From a virus: a stretch of DNA of 64,000 nucleotides. A program made the translations under genes and the position numbers. The first letter of the stretch is position 1; every line of letters starts with the position of its first letter. Where the stretch lies: IMG/VR virus record IMGVR_UViG_3300028146_000008, positions 30,369-94,368 of that record; one strand, 5' to 3'. Shown here piece by piece: positions 2,687 through 42,844 of this stretch. Below the pieces are notes generated by a model that was not told where the DNA came from, made no database searches, and worked only from the letters and a program-made list of their open reading frames with translations.

Positions 2687-3067
2687 TTATCTTTGATCGA
2701 GAATGATTGCTTCGATCACTTCTTGATCTTGTAATTCTTCTTGTGCGACTTTCAAACGGACATCGGCAAGATGATTCTGTTTTTCAAAAGTGACTTGGCC
2801 GCGAAGACTTTTGTAGAACTCGTTCATCGCATGGGCGATAGTCATGGATGTGGTTTGTTTCTTCTCTTCCGTGGGGTCGCACTCCATAGCGGCGTTTCGA
2901 GCTTTGACGATTTCAAGCTTCATCAGCTTGTCTAAAGCGCGTGCGTAGGGGGACTGATCCCCTGCCATCAAATCCATCTTCTCGGAGTCGGTTAGCTCAC
3001 TCGGAGGGCTGAACATTAGGCGTGGGTCGGTTTGTTGGGGTCGGGCGAATGCCTCGGATCCATTCAC
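2687..3067 (-). CDS. Hypothetical head-module protein
   Basis: 126-aa helical ORF with GGAG SD, between portal and scaffold. Confidence 0.6.
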   Translation of the reverse strand: MNGSEAFARPQQTDPRLMFSPPSELTDSEKMDLMAGDQSPYARALDKLMKLEIVKARNAAMECDPTEEKKQTTSMTIAHAMNEFYKSLRGQVTFEKQNHLADVRLKVAQEELQDQEVIEAIILDQR

Positions 3068-3082
3068 TTTGTGAAGTACTCC

Positions 3083-5209
3083 TTATCCAACCATCTGGCC
3101 GGAACCGAGGCCCATCGTTGGCGCGTTAGCACCTAGAAGGGCTTCTGGTTCGGCGGATTTTTCTGCGATGACTCGGAAGATGTCTCGAACCGCTCTGGCT
3201 TCGTTTTCCTGGTCAATTAGCTGTTGGCTCTCTTGCATCTTGCGGGCGTCCGCTTGCTGGTCTATTTGCGCCTTCATTTGCATTTGAGCGGCAGGCGAGT
3301 TAGCTTGCAGACGCTGAATTTCTTCCGCACTCATATCTTCAATAATGCTGTAGTAGTTCTTCCAGCCTGAGATGTCGTGAACCATGTGGAAGAGTTCTTC
3401 CACGTTCACTTTCTTCTGGTTCACTTCGTTCAACTGTTTCATCAGCGGTTGATTCTCGAATAGCTGCAGCATCATAAAGAGTGACTGCGCCATCTGAGAT
3501 TTCGCGGCTAGGTGGGACCCGGCCAATACTTCAAATTCCGCAGGCGAATTCAGGAAATCGCCGGAATCAAAAGTCGCCCATTCTTTTCCAAAATGCTCGC
3601 CGAGAAGTTGCTTGATATACGCCATCGGCATCTTCTCTTTGTTGAGAGTATGCATTTTGTAAATCAAGGGCTCGTAGACTTGGCGCACAAACGCTTCGGC
3701 GAATCCACCGATGCGGTTCATCGTGGCTTGGATGACGCCCGCTGCGCCCGTGCCGGTACGCATTGCGCCGCCACGAGTGGTGGAAGCGCCCATCGTAAGT
3801 TGCTGGTTTGCGCCCGAGGTCATTTCGACCCGGCTCTGGGAGAGAGCGATTTGCTGTACGACTTCCGCAGGAATGTTCGGCTGCTGCATTAAGGTCAGAG
3901 CCTTAGTGGTGTCGCCGTCTACCGCGATAATCCCGCCGATTCGTTGTCTGATTTGTTGTTCCTGAACGTTAGCCCCGCGAGAGCGAACGAACATAGGATT
4001 GACAATGAGATCAGCCAAATCCAGGCAGGCGTTGATGAGACCGGCTTGAACACGTTGTTCGACCCCGATAACGCGACCAAGACCCAGACCCCAAAAAGCG
4101 TTAGGTATGTTCCACCAGTTGACACTAAGGAATGGAATACATCCGAACTCGTTTGGCTCATTACGGATTACCTTGACGCGCTGGAGAACGGTGATTACTT
4201 TGTCGTTGTCCCAGCGTTCCAGAACTTCCAGCGGTTCATCGAGTGGATCCGCAGTAGATGCTTCAAACTGAGGCTTCGCGTGATGGACCTGGGTGGTTCC
4301 CTGGCTCCCCATCATTTCGGTGCTTCCACCGACCGTCGCAGCTTCCTTGGGCCTCTCGAACCAAGATTTAATCGTGGCTTCGCTCGGGAGGTCGTACCGC
4401 TTTTTCAGTACCTGTTTGCCGTTTTCGGTGGTGACGTACTCTTCATCCTTCAACTTAATGAGGTCTTTGTACGTCAGATACATTTTGTCGATAACAAACT
4501 TCGCTTTGCGAATGTCAGGGACTTTTAGTCCCGGATCGACGAGTGTGAACCGGATATCTTTTGCTTCAAATGTGGTGCGATGAACCTGTTTGTCTTTTTC
4601 TACTTTTTTGTACGTTTGGGAGTCTTTGGTTTCGATAACCGTGGGTTCGGCTCCGGGGACTGGGAGGGCGGCAATCTTAACCCCCTTCTCCAACGGTTCA
4701 TATTTCGTTTCTTTTTTGACAAAGCTTTCAAAGCCCCACTTCCAAATACCAGTGCCAAAGTTCAGGGCCGAGAAAAGGCCCCAATCGGTTTCTTGGCGGA
4801 AACCCATCTCATCTTGTTCGATTGAAATCAGCGACCGGATCGCTCGGGTTATGTTTTCGCTTCTGGACGGGCGTGGTCGCAGAATGAAGGCCGGTGTTTC
4901 GTAAAACAGACCGTTCATCACCTGGGGGTGGATGGAGTTAACTGTTTCGGCGACTACGAACCGGTTCACATTGGAACGGGGGACCGTAGTTTGCTCCCAC
5001 ATCCGGATAGACGGTGGGGATTGATACAGCCCATCGGCTTCGCGCCACCGCAGCGTCCAATAATTTGTTTGCAGCCAAGCCTCTGTGTTGATCGTATCGT
5101 TCACGCAGAGTTGAAGTGCGCCGTCCTTAGTTACTTCGCTAGGACTTTTAAATTGGCTTACTTCCGGCTGCTGATTAGGATTTGCTGGATCGGGCGTGAC
5201 GTGGGCCAT
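3083..5209 (-). CDS. Portal protein (P22-like)
   Basis: 708 aa, follows terminase; EVLERW, IPF...FWGLG segments and Q-rich C-terminus typical of P22-type portals. Confidence 0.8.
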   Translation of the reverse strand: MAHVTPDPANPNQQPEVSQFKSPSEVTKDGALQLCVNDTINTEAWLQTNYWTLRWREADGLYQSPPSIRMWEQTTVPRSNVNRFVVAETVNSIHPQVMNGLFYETPAFILRPRPSRSENITRAIRSLISIEQDEMGFRQETDWGLFSALNFGTGIWKWGFESFVKKETKYEPLEKGVKIAALPVPGAEPTVIETKDSQTYKKVEKDKQVHRTTFEAKDIRFTLVDPGLKVPDIRKAKFVIDKMYLTYKDLIKLKDEEYVTTENGKQVLKKRYDLPSEATIKSWFERPKEAATVGGSTEMMGSQGTTQVHHAKPQFEASTADPLDEPLEVLERWDNDKVITVLQRVKVIRNEPNEFGCIPFLSVNWWNIPNAFWGLGLGRVIGVEQRVQAGLINACLDLADLIVNPMFVRSRGANVQEQQIRQRIGGIIAVDGDTTKALTLMQQPNIPAEVVQQIALSQSRVEMTSGANQQLTMGASTTRGGAMRTGTGAAGVIQATMNRIGGFAEAFVRQVYEPLIYKMHTLNKEKMPMAYIKQLLGEHFGKEWATFDSGDFLNSPAEFEVLAGSHLAAKSQMAQSLFMMLQLFENQPLMKQLNEVNQKKVNVEELFHMVHDISGWKNYYSIIEDMSAEEIQRLQANSPAAQMQMKAQIDQQADARKMQESQQLIDQENEARAVRDIFRVIAEKSAEPEALLGANAPTMGLGSGQMVG

Positions 5210-5783: not shown

Positions 5784-7640
5784 TCACGTTCCTAGTAACT
5801 GCTCGTCGTAATTTTTTATAATCGGCATCCCTTCCCAGTGAGTGGGAGGCGGGACCACGACTTCTTTCGGAAGATCGTAGCCGTCTGTTTTCCAGTGCTG
5901 GCCAGTCTCGTTTAGCGGATTCTCGCGGTGCCCGAACTGGCGCTCGCTTCTTTGCTTTTGCGCCAACACGTCCCAAGCCGCCGTGACTTTTTCTTGTTCC
6001 GTTTGCGGAATAGTTATGTCTTTCGGCAAGAATCGGCGAAGATGGCCAATCATGTCCACCGAATCATCTTTACGGTTGGTTCCGGCTTTGAACTGAACGA
6101 ACTCCCGAATGACTTGATTCATTACTTCTTTCGGAATCTGATCCGAGAAGAAGATTTGGTTATTCAGAAAGAGATTTTCAGTTCCTTCCGCGCGGGCGTT
6201 CTTAGCGCCTTTTTGGTTATCGACGGGGAACCATTCGATAGGCGGACAGTCGTGGTATCCGACCTTGGCCAATGCTCGGAGAATATCGTTCTCTAAGAAA
6301 TCAGCTCCTGGAGATTTTTCGACGCTTAATTTTTCTAGCGGACGCCACTGAACCGCTAAACCTGCAAACTGGTGGGGCAGATCGGACTTGCTGTACCGAC
6401 CGAGTTTAATCGCGGCTATGTACATCCGACCGGCGTATGGTCCTTTGTCTGTAAAGAACGCTACGCCGCCCGATGAACGGTCACTGTCCGGATTATCGGT
6501 TTTTGCGAAGTCCCATGCCATTCCGACAAAATAGGTTCCAGGTTGTGGGAACTGCTCGTGCGGAATAATCACCGCTTCGATCATTTCCTTAGTGAACTTC
6601 ACGACCTTGGTTAGAGTCGGGTTGATGAGGTACTGGCAACTGAAAATGTAGGCATCTACGTTGAGTTCGGTTTTTAGGTTCTTAAAAGACAACCGTTCAA
6701 CGCCGTCGCCATCTTTCTCAAACAAAAGGCTCGCGATATCGTCTTGCGTGATCTGGTCGAGCTGCTTATTCCATGCGGATTTCTTTAGAACCCAGGCGGC
6801 TGCTTTCAGCACCTTCAGGTCTACGATTGTTTCTTCCAGCGATGAGTAAGCATCCGAAATGTCATACGGAGTACCCACATAATCACGGTAGCCGTACAGA
6901 TCGACAATTGGACGAGCAAGCTTAATTTCAGCAGTAACTTTCTTGCGCGACTCTTCGTTGGCTTTAGGACCGGAGTTCGTGTTACTGACGCAATCATCGA
7001 ACTTACCTACGTCGGCGTGTTTACCTGCGGTGCTCATTCCCAGGGACAGGGCCAGCAGAGTAGGTTGGGGTTGCTGTTCTTTGCGAGACCGAGACATGAA
7101 TTCAAACTCGGACTCTTTTTTCTTCGCCGGTACACAATGGGCGAAGTACAACATTTGAAATCGAGTGAGTTGTTTGTCGTCTTCGACTTGGAAGTGGGAC
7201 TTGGTTTGCCGAACGAAATCGGCAGCCAATCCTTCTTCCGCCGTCATGTAGAAAACGCGAATGTTCGGAAAGCAGATGATCCACTGAATCGCATCCGCCA
7301 TGTCAATGGAGGATTTGAATGTGCCGCGCGGATAAAGAAGTAGGCGGTTCTTGATTGTGCTCTGCTTCGCTACCGCGTCTTTCCAGTTCTTCGCTTCGAT
7401 GTATGGGTTCTTTTTTACGAAAAAATCATCCGTGATTGGCCGGTGGGTTTCGTCAACGAGAGATAACCCGAGAAGGTCCGTACATAGCCAGTAAAGGTCT
7501 TGCTGGCCTCGGCGGAACTCCTCTTCCCAAACTTTCGGATCGTTGTAGCCGTATTTGAGCCAGTCCGTAGAACCCGTCTTTTCGGCAGCGCCTTTTGCTT
7601 CCTGGTAGAGCTTGTCGAAATCAAACGGGTTGTACGCCAT
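5784..7640 (-). CDS. terL: Terminase large subunit
   Basis: PRGTFKSS Walker A variant, GKHADVGKFDD Walker B, VGTPY motif III, nuclease AWDFA and KDDSVD. Confidence 0.88.
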   Translation of the reverse strand: MAYNPFDFDKLYQEAKGAAEKTGSTDWLKYGYNDPKVWEEEFRRGQQDLYWLCTDLLGLSLVDETHRPITDDFFVKKNPYIEAKNWKDAVAKQSTIKNRLLLYPRGTFKSSIDMADAIQWIICFPNIRVFYMTAEEGLAADFVRQTKSHFQVEDDKQLTRFQMLYFAHCVPAKKKESEFEFMSRSRKEQQPQPTLLALSLGMSTAGKHADVGKFDDCVSNTNSGPKANEESRKKVTAEIKLARPIVDLYGYRDYVGTPYDISDAYSSLEETIVDLKVLKAAAWVLKKSAWNKQLDQITQDDIASLLFEKDGDGVERLSFKNLKTELNVDAYIFSCQYLINPTLTKVVKFTKEMIEAVIIPHEQFPQPGTYFVGMAWDFAKTDNPDSDRSSGGVAFFTDKGPYAGRMYIAAIKLGRYSKSDLPHQFAGLAVQWRPLEKLSVEKSPGADFLENDILRALAKVGYHDCPPIEWFPVDNQKGAKNARAEGTENLFLNNQIFFSDQIPKEVMNQVIREFVQFKAGTNRKDDSVDMIGHLRRFLPKDITIPQTEQEKVTAAWDVLAQKQRSERQFGHRENPLNETGQHWKTDGYDLPKEVVVPPPTHWEGMPIIKNYDEQLLGT

Positions 7641-15880: not shown

Positions 15881-15955
15881 TGGGGCCCAGTGATGGATTT
15901 GAACCACCGACCCGCTGTTTACAAAACAGCCGCTCTGCCTCTGAGCTAACCGGGC
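15881..15955 (-). tRNA. tRNA-Thr(UGU)
   Basis: Cloverleaf; anticodon arm GCTGT-TTTGTAA-ACAGC; CCA encoded. Confidence 0.93.
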
Positions 15956-15961
15956 AAAACT

Positions 15962-16035
15962 TGGCGGGGTCGAAGGGAATCAAACCCTCGTTTTTCGAGC
16001 GACAGTCGAGCGTCTTGTCACTAGACGACGACCCC
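15962..16035 (-). tRNA. tRNA-Asp(GUC)
   Basis: Acceptor GGGGTCG/CGACCCC, loop CTGTCGC, G73-CCA; variant T-loop TTTGATT. Confidence 0.88.
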
Positions 16036-16041
16036 TAAATT

Positions 16042-16115
16042 TGGAGCGAGACGTGAGAATCGAACTCACTTCTTCAGTTTGGAAGACTGAGGCACTGCCA
16101 ATATGCCAGTCCCGC
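16042..16115 (-). tRNA. tRNA-Gly(UCC)
   Basis: TCAGT-CTTCCAA-ACTGA anticodon arm, GTTCGATTC, U73-CCA. Confidence 0.93.
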
Positions 16116-25512: not shown

Positions 25513-25516
25513 ACTG

Positions 25517-25601
25517 CTGGGGCAGCAGGAGTCGAACCTGCAATGTCCTTTCGGACTGTCGCCTTAACGGGGCGATGCTGTGCCAGTTGAGCCACACCCC
25601 A
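25517..25601 (-). tRNA. Atypical tRNA with Asn (GUU) anticodon and long variable arm
   Basis: Acceptor TGGGGTG/TGCCCCA, G73; anticodon arm TCGCC-CCGTTAA-GGCGA; variable arm GTCC-GAAA-GGAC; T arm GCAGG-TTCGACT-CCTGC; no encoded CCA. Confidence 0.75.
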
Positions 25602-29930: not shown

Positions 29931-30395
29931 CTAATTGTTATTCCCAAAATACTGATTGTGTATACTTAAAACTTTCTCCGCTCGGGTCGGATCAGTGGAC
30001 CATGTGGCACTCACTTCTGTCACGTAAATACTTCCATTTAAAGCGTTTAGAGCTAATCCATAATGCGGGTAGGCGTGCTGTAGCCGTTGGAGTGTAGCCA
30101 TCCGGTCCTTGAAGCAGGTAGCCACATCCGGATATGCGATCCAGTGCGCTGTGATTGTTACCCACTGGCCGTTCAAGAACTCTTGTGTGGGTAGGTCTAG
30201 TTCACCATACGGGCACCCCTGGCGATACTTCTGGCCGAATAGGTTGTTTGCCTCACGCGCGAGCTTGGACTGGCCCCAATTGCTCTCTAATGCGGCTTCG
30301 CTGGCCGCGTATTCTGGGAAGATGTGGCCCCCCGCTCGGGCTTGGTTTGCTATATCCTGGATCCAACTTTGCCGTTCACTTTGTGAAGTACTCAT
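29931..30395 (-). CDS. Endolysin, GH73 glucosaminidase/FlgJ-like
   Basis: AALESNWGQS...NNLFGQK...WSTDP. Confidence 0.85.
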   Translation of the reverse strand: MSTSQSERQSWIQDIANQARAGGHIFPEYAASEAALESNWGQSKLAREANNLFGQKYRQGCPYGELDLPTQEFLNGQWVTITAHWIAYPDVATCFKDRMATLQRLQHAYPHYGLALNALNGSIYVTEVSATWSTDPTRAEKVLSIHNQYFGNNN

Positions 30396-38771: not shown

Positions 38772-39281
38772 TCACCACAAACCCTCAAAGGCACCGTGGA
38801 CCGCTAAGTTCACCATGCACTTTTGAAATTCCAGACCGTCTTCGAGACTTTTATCCCAAGTGGCTAAATGGCATTGCTCGTGAAGGAGTGTCTGCCGCGC
38901 CTGTTTCCCTGTCGGGTGGGTGTCTCGGTCAATTAAAATTTCGTACCGATTCTCGTGCTTTATGGTGTAACCCATGTTGTGCAGCGGCGTTAAATCCGCC
39001 CAGTGAACTTCGGTGTTTGCAGGCAACTGGTTCAGAAAATATTGTTCGTTGTACCCGGCGTACCACTTAGCCCAGTCTTCTTCCGGAAAAGGTGTCTCGG
39101 TTTTCTTGCGGGCGACGTGACGCCCTTGTTGTTCACAAACTGAACTACCACAGCAAGACACTGCTTTAAACGCGGCCATGGCATCCGAGTGCAGCGCGAC
39201 CAACAGTGCGCCGGTCAGCATAATCAGCAGAACCCCGAATACGAATAACCAGAAGCTCAGTTTTTGACGTGTGACGGGCAT
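38772..39281 (-). CDS. SprT-like metalloprotease with N-terminal TM segment
   Basis: YNEQYF, TLLHEQCH, FQKCM. Confidence 0.7.
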   Translation of the reverse strand: MPVTRQKLSFWLFVFGVLLIMLTGALLVALHSDAMAAFKAVSCCGSSVCEQQGRHVARKKTETPFPEEDWAKWYAGYNEQYFLNQLPANTEVHWADLTPLHNMGYTIKHENRYEILIDRDTHPTGKQARQTLLHEQCHLATWDKSLEDGLEFQKCMVNLAVHGAFEGLW

Positions 39282-39609
39282 ATTTAATCGTTCGCCGCGC
39301 ATGTAGCTATAATCAGGAACAAAAACGCTGCAGCAAGCGGTACAGGCCACGGATTCTGAATTTTGGCGGCATACGCGGAAATCAGTCCTATGAAGAAAAT
39401 GAAGACCCGGCACGGACGATCTTCCAGATACCAGAAAATGCTTTTAATCGCGCTCCATGCTTCCTTAACAGAAACAAGGAACAGAGTTGTAAGCGCCCCG
39501 AGTATGAACGATATTGCTATCCAGTGTGCCATGATTTAATACTATCATTGATTCTGTTATTTGTCAACACTATTTAATTCATTTATTTCCCGTTAAGCCA
39601 GCTAACAGA

Positions 39610-39642
39610 AAAAACAAGCGGGGTTTTTAGGCCCCGCTTTTT
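39610..39642 (-). terminator. Rho-independent terminator closing the pentamer array (likely bidirectional)
   Basis: AAGCGGGG-CCTAAAAA-CCCCGCTT-GTTTTTT. Confidence 0.8.
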
Positions 39643-39990
39643 AGCGGTTCGGTTCCAATCCAGTCCGCGCTAGACCCGACCTCTGCTCACCCCGCCCCGC
39701 CTTGCCTGCCGTGCCCCGCCTAGTCGAACTATGCTATGTCGTACCTTTCCTCACCTGCATTGCCTCGCCTGACCGCGATCAACCGCACTATGTCACGCCT
39801 CTCCTCGCCTGCGCTACCTCACTAAACCTCGGCTCGCTCGGCCAGACCAGACCGTCCCTAGCCTGCTTCGCCTTGCTGTATCACACCGCATCGTACCCGG
39901 CCTTCCCTAGCCTGCCCTACTGTTCCGGACCTGTTCGGGTCATGCCGCTCCTCGCCTGCATTACAATTCCACGCCCAGCTCCACCGTGTG
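39643..39990 (-). repeat. Non-coding array of GGY-NN pentamers arranged in 44-54-nt units; candidate guide-RNA array
   Basis: GCAGG junctions (plus-strand CCTGC at 39705, 39754, 39808, 39862, 39911, 39955; spacings 49, 54, 54, 49, 44 = 5n+4); strict 5-nt periodicity. Confidence 0.9.
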
Positions 39991-40003
39991 GAGAAAGTTG
40001 AGA

Positions 40004-40567
40004 TTATGCCGCTGCGGCGGTTCTTCCGTCAACAGCGGCTTGAAGTTTGCGGGCAAGAATGGTTTGCTCCCCCCGCGCCAATTCCGATATGGATTTCTTT
40101 CCTAGTTTGGTTAGCCGTTCTTTCGCATACTCCATAACCTGGAGATGTCGGCGGTGTCCTTCGATCTGTTGTTCGTAACGGTTGATGGTGTAGTTTAGGT
40201 CGAATACTGTGAAAGTGATGAATTTTTTTCTCCGGCCATTGATATCGTAACTGGCGTGGAGCACGCTGATCTCGATGTCAATCGTCTCTTCTTTTGGGCG
40301 CTCGATGGATATAGATCCTGTATATGAAGCTATTGGCTCTGTGTAGGATCTTGCTGGTATTCTCTCAACTCTGCTTTCTGGCTCGGGACGACGTTTTCCA
40401 ACCATCACAGAGCTAAGATGGCTCGCAAGTGCTTGTTGGGCCAGCGTTTTTATATCCGAGTCTGAGAGCGAAAGATCATCCCAGAATTTTCGGACGAGTT
40501 TGATTGCAGCCTCGTCCGAATTCCGAGCGTTTTTCAAAATGTAGTTAACTGACTGAGGAATGCTCAA
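40004..40567 (-). CDS. Hypothetical partner protein between the Cas7-like gene and the array
   Basis: GGAG SD, TTG start, 14 nt after the upstream stop. Confidence 0.7.
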   Translation of the reverse strand: MSIPQSVNYILKNARNSDEAAIKLVRKFWDDLSLSDSDIKTLAQQALASHLSSVMVGKRRPEPESRVERIPARSYTEPIASYTGSISIERPKEETIDIEISVLHASYDINGRRKKFITFTVFDLNYTINRYEQQIEGHRRHLQVMEYAKERLTKLGKKSISELARGEQTILARKLQAAVDGRTAAAA

Positions 40568-40581
40568 GATTTATCTCCAAG

Positions 40582-41229
40582 TTACTTCAATTCAAACAAA
40601 CCCCAGCCCATGCCAGCGGAGTTCTTGCTGTCGGGTCGGCCTTCGCCGATTCCGACTTGCTGGCCCACGCGCATCAGAAGGTTGGAAATATCTGCTGCCG
40701 TGAATTGGTCGCCATCCCAACGGATTTTAATTTTCGCGGACCAATCGTAATATGCGGGCCGAACACACAGATACGGCTGACCGGTTTCAACACGGGCAAC
40801 ATCTTCCTGCTTCGTCGGCTTCCCATAAATCCTGATGAGCGGGATTTGCGGTTCTTTGGCGTCCCGACCGTCCGCCAGCACGAAAATCGAGAGCTTGGCC
40901 AATGTCATTTTGAAGTTCACTAAACGGCAAGCTGAAATCATGGCGTTGCGAACGGATGCCGCGTGGAACCCATCCCATCCTTCTTCCGAGATGTATCGGG
41001 CTTCGTTGTAAATCTCGTTCGTATCTTTTGCTTCCCGATTTTTCTTGCTACCGGCAGCCTTTCCTGTTTCCATCTTCTGTTTGAACTGTTCTTTGAGCTT
41101 TTGGCTCATGCGGTGGATCACCAGCGGAGCGATCCCTTTAACTTCAAACATTCCATTCTGGAATTTTGGAGCTGGGATAGTTACGCGGGTCTTTGATTCA
41201 GATGTGGTGATTGTATTTGTCGTTGCCAT
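40582..41229 (-). CDS. Stand-alone Cas7/Csm3-like RAMP-fold protein
   Basis: FEVKGIAPLVIH (beta1), FHAASVRNAMISA (RAMP helix motif), C-terminal glycine-rich loop GIGEGRP...GMGWGLFE; AGGAG SD and TTGACA promoter near 41319. Confidence 0.7.
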   Translation of the reverse strand: MATTNTITTSESKTRVTIPAPKFQNGMFEVKGIAPLVIHRMSQKLKEQFKQKMETGKAAGSKKNREAKDTNEIYNEARYISEEGWDGFHAASVRNAMISACRLVNFKMTLAKLSIFVLADGRDAKEPQIPLIRIYGKPTKQEDVARVETGQPYLCVRPAYYDWSAKIKIRWDGDQFTAADISNLLMRVGQQVGIGEGRPDSKNSAGMGWGLFELK

Positions 41230-41627
41230 TGCTATTCTCCTGTTCAGCTAGTAGGCGGTTGTGTGTGCCTTTGGTGCCGAACAGTTCACACACTAACAGA
41301 GCTTAAATAGTCCTGTCAAGTGCTATTTTGTTTGATAATTCTGAATGTATTCGATTTCGACGTGCTTTTGGAGTTTTACTGCGCCGTTTTGGTTGGTCAC
41401 TGTGCGCGTCTATAACCTCTTGTCTTGGCAGTTCCCCAAAAGAAACTCCTGTTAGACCCAGTTTGTCCTCCGTCCGAAGAACAGGTAGGATGTGTTTCCC
41501 CATTTTCCCCTGCAGCGTGGTTAGAACTTTTAAAAATTCAGATTCATGCCACTTTACTGTTTCGGTTTCGATGATGTATCCGTTATTGATTTGTTCGATT
41601 GTTATTTTCATTTTTTCTCCTGTAAAA

Positions 41628-42200
41628 CTATTTTGTATATCTAGTTCTCGGGTCCCATCCGAACGGAACACTGATTACTGGTTTGCCTTCGGTTGGGTCA
41701 TGGATATGTTCCACGGTTACGGTCAAATCCCGAATGACGCCCCGAGCGAGGTCGCCCCAAATCTCGATACGGTCAATCTCGTCTTGTTGGCCGTCCAGAT
41801 ACGCCCTTTGAATATTGGCCTTTTCGATGGTCATCACGCGCGGCGTTTTCTGGGCCTTGGAAGATCGAACCAACCCCAGGTCTTCCGCCTGTTTGCCGCC
41901 CCATACTAGGTTCGGGTTCGGGGCGGGGAAGAATCGTTTCTTTTCTTCATTGAACCGCCACTCCGTAATCAGATAGTCCGCGATACCATGTTTCACCAGA
42001 ATTTCGGCTTCGTCGGTGGTCACGCGGTAACTACACCGGCAGTTTGGTTTGCGAGTCTCCCCTAGAACCTTGGCGGCGTCTTTCCAGAGTTTGTTGAAAT
42101 CTTCCTTAGTGAGATGACCGTCTTCGAGCCAGGGCTGGACAAATCGGAGCACCTTCTGTTGATCGGTACAAGCGTGAACGAGCGACGGGCGCAAACTCAT
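41628..42200 (-). CDS. Hypothetical protein
   Basis: 190-aa ORF coupled to its neighbours. Confidence 0.55.
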   Translation of the reverse strand: MSLRPSLVHACTDQQKVLRFVQPWLEDGHLTKEDFNKLWKDAAKVLGETRKPNCRCSYRVTTDEAEILVKHGIADYLITEWRFNEEKKRFFPAPNPNLVWGGKQAEDLGLVRSSKAQKTPRVMTIEKANIQRAYLDGQQDEIDRIEIWGDLARGVIRDLTVTVEHIHDPTEGKPVISVPFGWDPRTRYTK

Positions 42201-42844
42201 GCTGCCGCCTTCTGATACGCGGTTAGTTGTGCGATCCAGTCATAAAAATCGGCCACCGTTAAATTGGACTTTGCTCGATTGCAAACGGTACAGCACGGAA
42301 CTACGTTATCGAGTGTATAGTGCTTTGAACTGTCTACTCGATCCAAGCCGTTGTACCAGAATTCTGAATTCTTAATACCACGGCGGGCATAGGAATACAC
42401 GCTGCGCGGCCTCCCACCGCAATACACGCAAGGTTTCTGCGTAAGGGCTAGAAAAATGTCCTTTTCGATGTGCCACTCTAACCCACGTCTTTTTGCGGTT
42501 GTTTGGTAAACTTTATATACCGCATTTTTTGACGCTTCGCCAGGAGGCAGACTGCGCAGTTGTCTCAGTTTTTCTCTCCCTGCGGCGGTCGTTTGCCATT
42601 TTCGGTTTGCCATACATCCGCAACTAATCGGCGCGGTTGGCTTCAACATTATCATTCTCCAAAAGGTTCTCTCTTTCCCACAAACACACCGACATTTCAC
42701 TAAATAGCGACCTCGTGGGTCTTTAAATTCCTCCAGAATTTCGAGGTTGTTTATCTTTTTCCCAGTTAGCGTGATCTTGTTCCACGGTGTACGACCTTTT
42801 CGCGAAGATGTTAGTTTTCTAATAAAGAGAAACTTCCTTTCCAC
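42197..42844 (-). CDS. HNH-type homing endonuclease-like protein
   Basis: CRCVCG, SCGC, CVYCG, GLDRVDSSKHYTLDNVVPCCTVCNRAK. Confidence 0.8.
   Translation of the reverse strand: MERKFLFIRKLTSSRKGRTPWNKITLTGKKINNLEILEEFKDPRGRYLVKCRCVCGKERTFWRMIMLKPTAPISCGCMANRKWQTTAAGREKLRQLRSLPPGEASKNAVYKVYQTTAKRRGLEWHIEKDIFLALTQKPCVYCGGRPRSVYSYARRGIKNSEFWYNGLDRVDSSKHYTLDNVVPCCTVCNRAKSNLTVADFYDWIAQLTAYQKAAA

Follow-up and report, generated by a model that had tools for sequence, protein, structure and literature searches.

Within a 64,000-nt stretch of IMG/VR virus record IMGVR_UViG_3300028146_000008 (positions 30,369 to 94,368 of the record; hereafter the window, whose numbering is used throughout), a minus-strand operon carries a gene for a 215-aa RAMP-like protein, a gene for a 187-aa protein and an array of GGY-NN pentamers, which together very probably constitute a phage-encoded VIPR (Viral Interference Programmable Repeat) system with a staggered array of guide RNAs (vrRNAs). 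VIPR is a form of RNA-guided DNA silencing reported in preprints from April to June 2026 (bioRxiv 10.64898/2026.04.26.720920), and its parts are a stand-alone RAMP protein (Vipr), an accessory gene (vap) and vrRNAs of 9-16 GGY-NN repeats (two 2026 preprints). The assignment is based on what was computed here: the fold of the 215-aa protein, its sequence link to the Vipr protein of Escherichia phage SUSP1, the anatomy of the array, the co-occurrence and strand linkage of array and gene across the family, and the lack of CRISPR parts. The array is placed with the staggered kind because its units, multiples of five nucleotides overlapping by 1 nt, equal the published staggered anatomy. An earlier note on this DNA, made from its letters alone, had proposed a non-CRISPR RNA-guided system; that proposal was right, although the system is no longer an undescribed one.

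The operon and its pentamer array

On the minus strand, the open reading frame (ORF) of 215 aa is followed in turn by the 187-aa ORF, by a pentamer array of ~340 nt (39985-39647) and by a strong intrinsic terminator, all at the positions where the earlier note had placed them. The features of the operon, with array units as parsed by us, are:

41314..41319, minus strand: TTGACA hexamer, read from the sequence; weak candidate for the -35 box of the operon promoter
40582..41229, minus strand: vipr, ORF of 215 aa, predicted Cas7-like RAMP
40004..40567, minus strand: accessory gene in the vap position, ORF of 187 aa with a TTG start, 14 nt past the vipr stop
40003..40032, minus strand: candidate promoter-like site directly upstream of the array (TTGACG, 18 nt, CATAAT; 10/12 matches in a consensus scan)
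39956..39985, minus strand: leader unit U0, 6 degenerate pentamers, ending in a GCA/GG junction
39912..39956, minus strand: vrRNA unit U1, 9 pentamers, 45 nt including the shared G
39863..39912, minus strand: vrRNA unit U2, 10 pentamers
39809..39863, minus strand: vrRNA unit U3, 11 pentamers
39755..39809, minus strand: vrRNA unit U4, 11 pentamers
39706..39755, minus strand: vrRNA unit U5, 10 pentamers
39647..39706, minus strand: vrRNA unit U6, the last, at most 12 pentamers, running into the terminator; its final two pentamers (CGA-AC) are doubtful
39606..39639, minus strand: intrinsic terminator, stem 39639..39616 of 8 bp including 6 G-C pairs, then a T-run

The array lies on the vipr strand, its leader unit 19 nt and U1 48 nt from the accessory gene. 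The autocorrelation of the array has a peak at lag 5 (0.49, where the background is ~0.25) and further peaks at lags 44, 49, 54 and 59. Splitting at the six GCAGG sites gives junction spacings of 44, 49, 54, 54 and 49 nt, and both measures bear out the parse and the unit lengths that had been read from the letters by eye. When neighbouring units are allowed to share one G, their lengths become exactly 45, 50, 55, 55, 50 and 60 nt, equal to 9, 10, 11, 11, 10 and 12 pentamers and thus inside the published range of 9-16 repeats. Across 63 pentamers, G occupies position 1 in 50 (79%) and position 2 in 53 (84%), a pyrimidine occupies position 3 in 51 (81%), and positions 4 and 5 are mixed. The second pentamer is GGR in five of the six units, which is not a trait across the family. 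The pattern stands out sharply from its surroundings: scored as a chain of pentamers, the array reaches 98.5, against 9.0 for the runner-up elsewhere in the 94-kb phage and a maximum of 21 among 74 shuffled loci. Its RNA is predicted to fold no better than shuffles (z 0.19), as expected for a guide coated by protein, and no ribozyme or other RNA family was found at the locus with Rfam. Nor does the transcribed strand hold any ORF of at least 40 aa across the array, in agreement with its earlier description as non-coding.

The signals that would start transcription are less distinct. The TTGACA hexamer at 41319-41314, from which the operon had been thought to be transcribed, is present, but no acceptable -10 box follows it and the consensus scan did not list it; the better site is that at 40032..40003. 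Consensus promoter sites number 2 across the region versus 1.6 in shuffles, and because there is no excess of such sites we treat the one before the array as a candidate only.

Vipr, its accessory gene and related loci

Judged by its sequence, the 215-aa protein is Vipr. Its sole family match is phrog_4652 (E 7e-14), of unknown function, and no Pfam, NCBIfam or PADLOC model matched it. Among PDB sequences it matches 'SUSP1 Vipr protein' (36pp_D) best, with an E-value of 0.005 from the single sequence and of 3.2e-6 from a profile of 74 diverse homologues. An AlphaFold2 model (pLDDT 93.9, pTM 0.86) displays a thumb beta-hairpin at about residues 139-160, containing R157, and an unstructured Gly-rich stretch at residues 193-211, where the G-loop lies (193-210; GIGEGRP...GMGWG). 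Model and match together sustain the earlier identification of a stand-alone Cas7/RAMP-like gene, and the match also upholds the resemblance to VIPR loci that the note had suggested. Homologues of the protein are numerous: clustering at 90% identity leaves 6215 groups and clustering at 50% leaves 2032; the closest, at 83% identity, is encoded on a contig of 33,138 nt.

In SUSP1, cryo-electron microscopy places R138, D177 and W178 in contact with G1 and G2 of the GGY triplet and R179 in contact with Y3 (2026 VIPR preprints). In the alignment, which spans the thumb and the G-loop, these residues pair with R157, E196, G197 and R198, respectively, of the 215-aa protein; SUSP1 residues H17 and K33 could not be aligned. 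Across the clade, G197 and R198 do not vary, and R157 hardly does. A conserved GxGWGxF motif that follows might substitute for the lost tryptophan.

To view the system in its wider family we compared 74 related loci, 69 viral and five from metagenome-assembled genomes, that encode relatives of the protein at 46-78% identity. A pentamer array is present on the vipr strand in 71 of the 74 (median score 111), compared with 4/74 on the opposite strand and 1/74 in shuffled sequence, so that the earlier note's suggested check, whether homologues co-occur with 5-nt-periodic arrays, was answered in the affirmative. The array may follow vipr directly, follow the gene after it, or lie upstream, some loci having arrays at two of these positions, and the size of units between 4-nt steps peaks at 9-12 pentamers. 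The junction G-C-A/G-G is 95-100% conserved among 244 unique junctions family-wide, statistics that mark GCA/GG as an invariant punctuation mark of the family. In a logo anchored at the junction, most G1 and G2 positions carry 1.1-1.6 bits and Y3 0.5-1.1 bits, while N4 and N5 carry 0.04-0.3 bits.

These comparisons bear directly on the notion that the array is an element acting as DNA (iterons, a G-quadruplex tract or a recombination site), or else a coding repeat, that happens to adjoin a RAMP-like gene. The tract is rich in G, two-tetrad quadruplexes could form in it, and a 99-aa ORF occupies the opposite strand at 39702-40001. A period of five with 4-nt register breaks is nonetheless incompatible with a conserved reading frame, and arrays co-oriented with vipr in nearly all related loci, like the promoter-like site and terminator that bracket the present one, weigh against this notion; moreover, vrRNAs of homologous systems co-purify with Vipr (2026 preprints). 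We regard this explanation as having almost no probability.

The 187-aa product of the second gene is considerably rarer than Vipr. Nothing matched it in Pfam, PHROG, NCBIfam or PADLOC, the ESM Atlas held no usable match, and its AlphaFold2 model is unusable because of its low pLDDT (56). Only three homologues were found among 5.8 billion proteins (52-54% identity), one of them on a 33,138-nt contig, the same size as that bearing the closest Vipr homologue; a further one occupies the same position in a related locus (L011). More commonly, vipr is adjoined by an accessory gene of ~150 aa, present in 46 related loci (e.g. L005:3624-4100 and L014:3627-4079) and bearing the motif SPLHxxFxWDD...QARxLIR; this family too lacks a Pfam, NCBIfam or PADLOC family and any significant PDB sequence match. 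The accessory slot thus appears exchangeable.

The search also uncovered VIPR loci in named phages. Cyanophage Cy-LDV1 (L001, BK059895.1) contains an unannotated locus at 2977-4560, in which g34 is a Vipr homologue (48% identity) and g33 belongs to the common ~150-aa-type accessory family; arrays flank g33 on both sides (3626-3812 and 4433-4556), and the locus itself is flanked by a cI-like repressor region and an excisionase. Homologues of Vipr at ~30% identity, annotated as hypothetical proteins, are encoded by four Gordonia phages: Ecliptus and ODay (gp19 in each), Pipp (gp42) and UmaThurman (gp39). In Ecliptus (L002, OP820472.1; 2447-3300), the one Gordonia locus that was read, an array of ~220 nt with GGC-NN pentamers and GGCA junctions lies directly past gp19, between tail assembly chaperone genes on one side and the tape measure gene on the other. 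Cy-LDV1 and these four Gordonia phages are cultured and may offer tractable models for VIPR.

Proposed action, targets and phage setting

In the published mechanism, one Vipr protomer binds each repeat, and the NN pairs read double-stranded DNA (dsDNA) with one base skipped after each pair (NNx), leading to transcriptional repression (2026 preprints). By analogy with the SUSP1 and P. fulva systems, from which one protomer per repeat, the NNx code and repression are carried over, the operon would be transcribed through the array to the terminator, possibly aided by the separate promoter at 40032-40003. Vipr protomers would then load one per GGY-NN pentamer, sequestering GGY and exposing the NN dinucleotides, much as the earlier note had envisaged in positing one subunit per pentamer and a discontinuous code. 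At each invariant 4-nt step, GCA/GG, the pentamer register would shift by one base, so that one filament ends and the next begins; the outcome would be six guides of 9-12 repeats and a short leader. Each filament would read dsDNA by the NNxNNx rule, recognize a site of 26-35 bp and block transcription there, the likely target being a competing mobile element and a host gene being less probable. The 187-aa neighbor would take the accessory (vap) place and, again by analogy, probably modulate or strengthen the effect of the system. We infer both this role and the delimiting of guides by the register break.

Natural targets of VIPR are mostly competing phages and satellites (2026 preprints). Targets of the present guides were sought under the 1-nt-skip rule (NNx), a match at 80% or more of the NN positions being the mark of a natural target; the preprint's own nhmmer searches applied this threshold and allowed no gaps. 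Within the 94-kb record, skips of 0, 1 and 2 nt were tried, and no self-target rose above the controls, which for each guide were 100 versions in shuffled order; no convincing one had been seen by eye either, and the result agrees with the preprint's statement on its own systems. In the 74 related loci (0.44 Mb), guides matched no better than shuffled guides, so that the gapped matches that the earlier note had proposed to score against controls showed no excess in the record or in these loci. Exact NNx scans of IMG/VR with five guides returned 1, 2, 0, 1 and 2 matches, the chance level for 18 fixed bases.

Individual candidates were considered and set aside. The best was that of U4, at 21/22 in a 559-aa protein of phage L079 (GC 60%), which has no similarity to the phage under study. 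U5 matched at 20/20 in contigs L082 and L083, a match judged to be chance because these contigs have a GC content of 32%, against 50.5% in the phage, and the guide is AT-rich. The GC contents of L079 and of L082/L083 are very unlike that of the phage, and no other guide converges on them. As a separate observation, the viral contigs L082 and L083 (32% GC) share an unexplained 175-nt island (L082:1420-1594; L083:1340-1514) of 96.6% identity amid much lower similarity; it holds the U5 match, at the start of a 182-aa ORF.

A different view of the targets is that the locus is a genuine VIPR system aimed at host genes (e.g. anti-phage defence), its guides spelling conserved coding motifs with the skipped base falling on the wobble position. 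Each guide, in frame, does read as a degenerate peptide, and all nine exact matches to the first 10 NN pairs of U4 fall in the NNx codon frame of an open frame, one of which is just 23 aa long. The nine are in unrelated proteins, however, and look like chance arising from codon bias. Scanning metagenomes with U4 yielded 8 sites, in unrelated proteins and without exception in the NNx codon frame, which we put down to the bias of the pattern toward G-first codons. Acidobacteriota were searched because the nearest cultured relative of the phage's terminase belongs to an acidobacterial phage, and in 301 genomes of this group U3 had 3 matches versus 4 for a reversed-pattern control, a comparison that holds for the genomes searched, outside which the phage's host may lie. 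On balance, guides directed at host genes seem improbable.

Several points weigh against the assignment of the locus to VIPR with a staggered array. The SUSP1 Vipr match is limited to the C-terminal ~55 residues (145-198), and the clade has an invariant glycine where SUSP1 has the tryptophan (W178) that stacks on G2. Strict GGY accounts for only 50% of pentamers, and in 12 of 63 the third position holds a purine, which the SUSP1 pocket does not admit. The structured 3' tail or pseudoknot of type II is absent, the units abutting at GCA/GG; given no tail, no fold beyond shuffles and no Rfam match, the array is not of type II. The 187-aa protein is unrelated to the clade's common ~150-aa accessory family (hhalign probability 0.2%). 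Small-RNA sequencing has confirmed only ribozyme-interspersed and single-vrRNA architectures, the staggered one not being reported as confirmed (bioRxiv 10.64898/2026.04.26.720920). Finally, no natural target above chance emerged from the self, viral, metagenome and Acidobacteriota searches.

Some of these same points would suit a decaying or inactive remnant, in which an intact protein persists beside an array too degenerate to load. Only 65% of pentamers begin with GG, perturbing the GGY motif abolished silencing in SUSP1 (2026 preprints), and the target searches yielded none. The earlier description of the pentamers as mostly GGY needs correcting for the strict triplet, whose share lies in the lower quartile of the family (rank 17/72; median 65%). 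Against decay, the array remains inside the family range (interquartile range 51-83%), the preprint reports frequent internal degeneracy of vrRNAs (bioRxiv 10.64898/2026.04.26.720920), and no damage shows in either ORF, in the terminator, in any of the six junctions or in the exact 5n registers. We consider a remnant very unlikely, though less so than the DNA-level or coding repeat discussed above, and retain the staggered VIPR system as the far better account.

The departures from described systems also raise the tentative, and on present indications rather doubtful, prospect of an undescribed VIPR sub-variant, in which a new 187-aa family (five known members) has displaced the ~150-aa partner, the GCA/GG break delimits or processes guides in place of a tail or ribozyme, and G2 is recognized without the SUSP1 tryptophan. 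Were guides of such a sub-variant to hit host genes rather than phages, known VIPR biology would be widened.

The source record, of an uncultured soil-type phage, is 94,368 bp long, is estimated to be 85% complete and has a GC content of 50.5%. It encodes a portal, large terminase, primase-helicase, helicase and DNA polymerase, which identify a tailed phage. The nearest cultured relative of the large terminase (5784-7640, minus strand) is that of Tunturiibacter phage Tunturi_3 (97.6 kb, acidobacterial host); because identity is only 28%, the lineage is poorly sampled. Four phage tRNA genes (Thr-TGT, Asp-GTC, Gly-TCC and Asn-GTT) lie at 15881-16115 and 25516-25601 on the minus strand. The VIPR locus is situated amid early and replication genes, and family searches left the genes near it as unknowns apart from the two that flank it:

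42197-42844, minus strand: HNH/endonuclease VII-like gene (phrog_1035, E 5e-16), two genes upstream of the VIPR locus
38772-39413, minus strand: SprT-like metalloprotease-domain gene (under the Pfam cut-off), downstream of the VIPR locus

Directly past the VIPR terminator is a good sigma-70-like promoter (39539-39567, minus strand; TTGACA, 17 nt, TAGTAT, with a TG extension), which probably drives a small membrane-protein gene at 39532-39284.

Comparison with known systems

VIPR loci are mostly viral and have been recognized by at least four tandem YNNGG/GGY-NN repeats next to vipr; seven types and six vap families are distinguished, and the system has been proposed to be older than CRISPR (2026 preprints). 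The present locus adds a natural example to this known kind and leaves the concept of the system unchanged. Its own distinguishing points are modest: the accessory gene is a rare one, Trp has given way to Gly in the G-loop, and the array may have its own promoter. Well-documented natural loci help to chart VIPR diversity, and this one provides a compact staggered array, with six guides within 340 nt, suited to direct small-RNA and reporter tests.

The closest counterpart is the staggered-array VIPR (bioRxiv 10.64898/2026.04.26.720920, fig. S18 legend), in which, as here, adjacent guides of a same-strand GGY-NN array overlap by 1 nt, and a stand-alone Vipr RAMP with one accessory gene is borne by a phage without cas genes or a CRISPR array. 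The two differ in the accessory gene, which is of the ~150-aa kind in 46 related loci and of the rare 187-aa family here. Type II VIPR of Escherichia phage SUSP1 (36pp_D) has a homologous protein, whose thumb Arg and G-loop Asp/Glu-x-Arg are kept here, and it shares GGY-NN repeats (9-16 per guide) in an array downstream of vipr and vap. Its vrRNAs, however, are ~100 nt long with an invariant 3' tail/pseudoknot, whereas the units here measure 45-60 nt, lack a tail and show no significant fold; W178 is replaced by Gly, and overall identity is too low for full-length alignment.

The Cas7 proteins of class 1 CRISPR systems (Csm3, Cmr4, type VII Cas7 and Cas7-11 domains) also polymerize on guide RNA with a fixed step per subunit. 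Their step is 6 nt, of which 5 are paired, while that of VIPR is 5 nt with only 2 nt exposed, and their sequence identity with the 215-aa protein is 7-13%. Class 1 CRISPR further involves a crRNA repeat handle, Cas5, Cas6, Cas10/Cas11, Cas1 and a repeat-spacer array, none of which is seen at the VIPR locus, Cas1 being the sole cas family searched. In the phage as a whole, the family search found no Cas1, and Tandem Repeats Finder (TRF) found no CRISPR-like repeat array with a period of 25-80 nt, in line with what the earlier note had observed in the window. TIGR-Tas systems resemble VIPR in being non-CRISPR, often phage-borne and RNA-guided in their targeting of DNA, with guides derived from tandem repeat arrays. 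Tas proteins, in contrast, have a Nop or box C/D-type RNA-binding domain rather than a RAMP fold, and TIGR guides comprise two contiguous spacer halves with no pentamer code.

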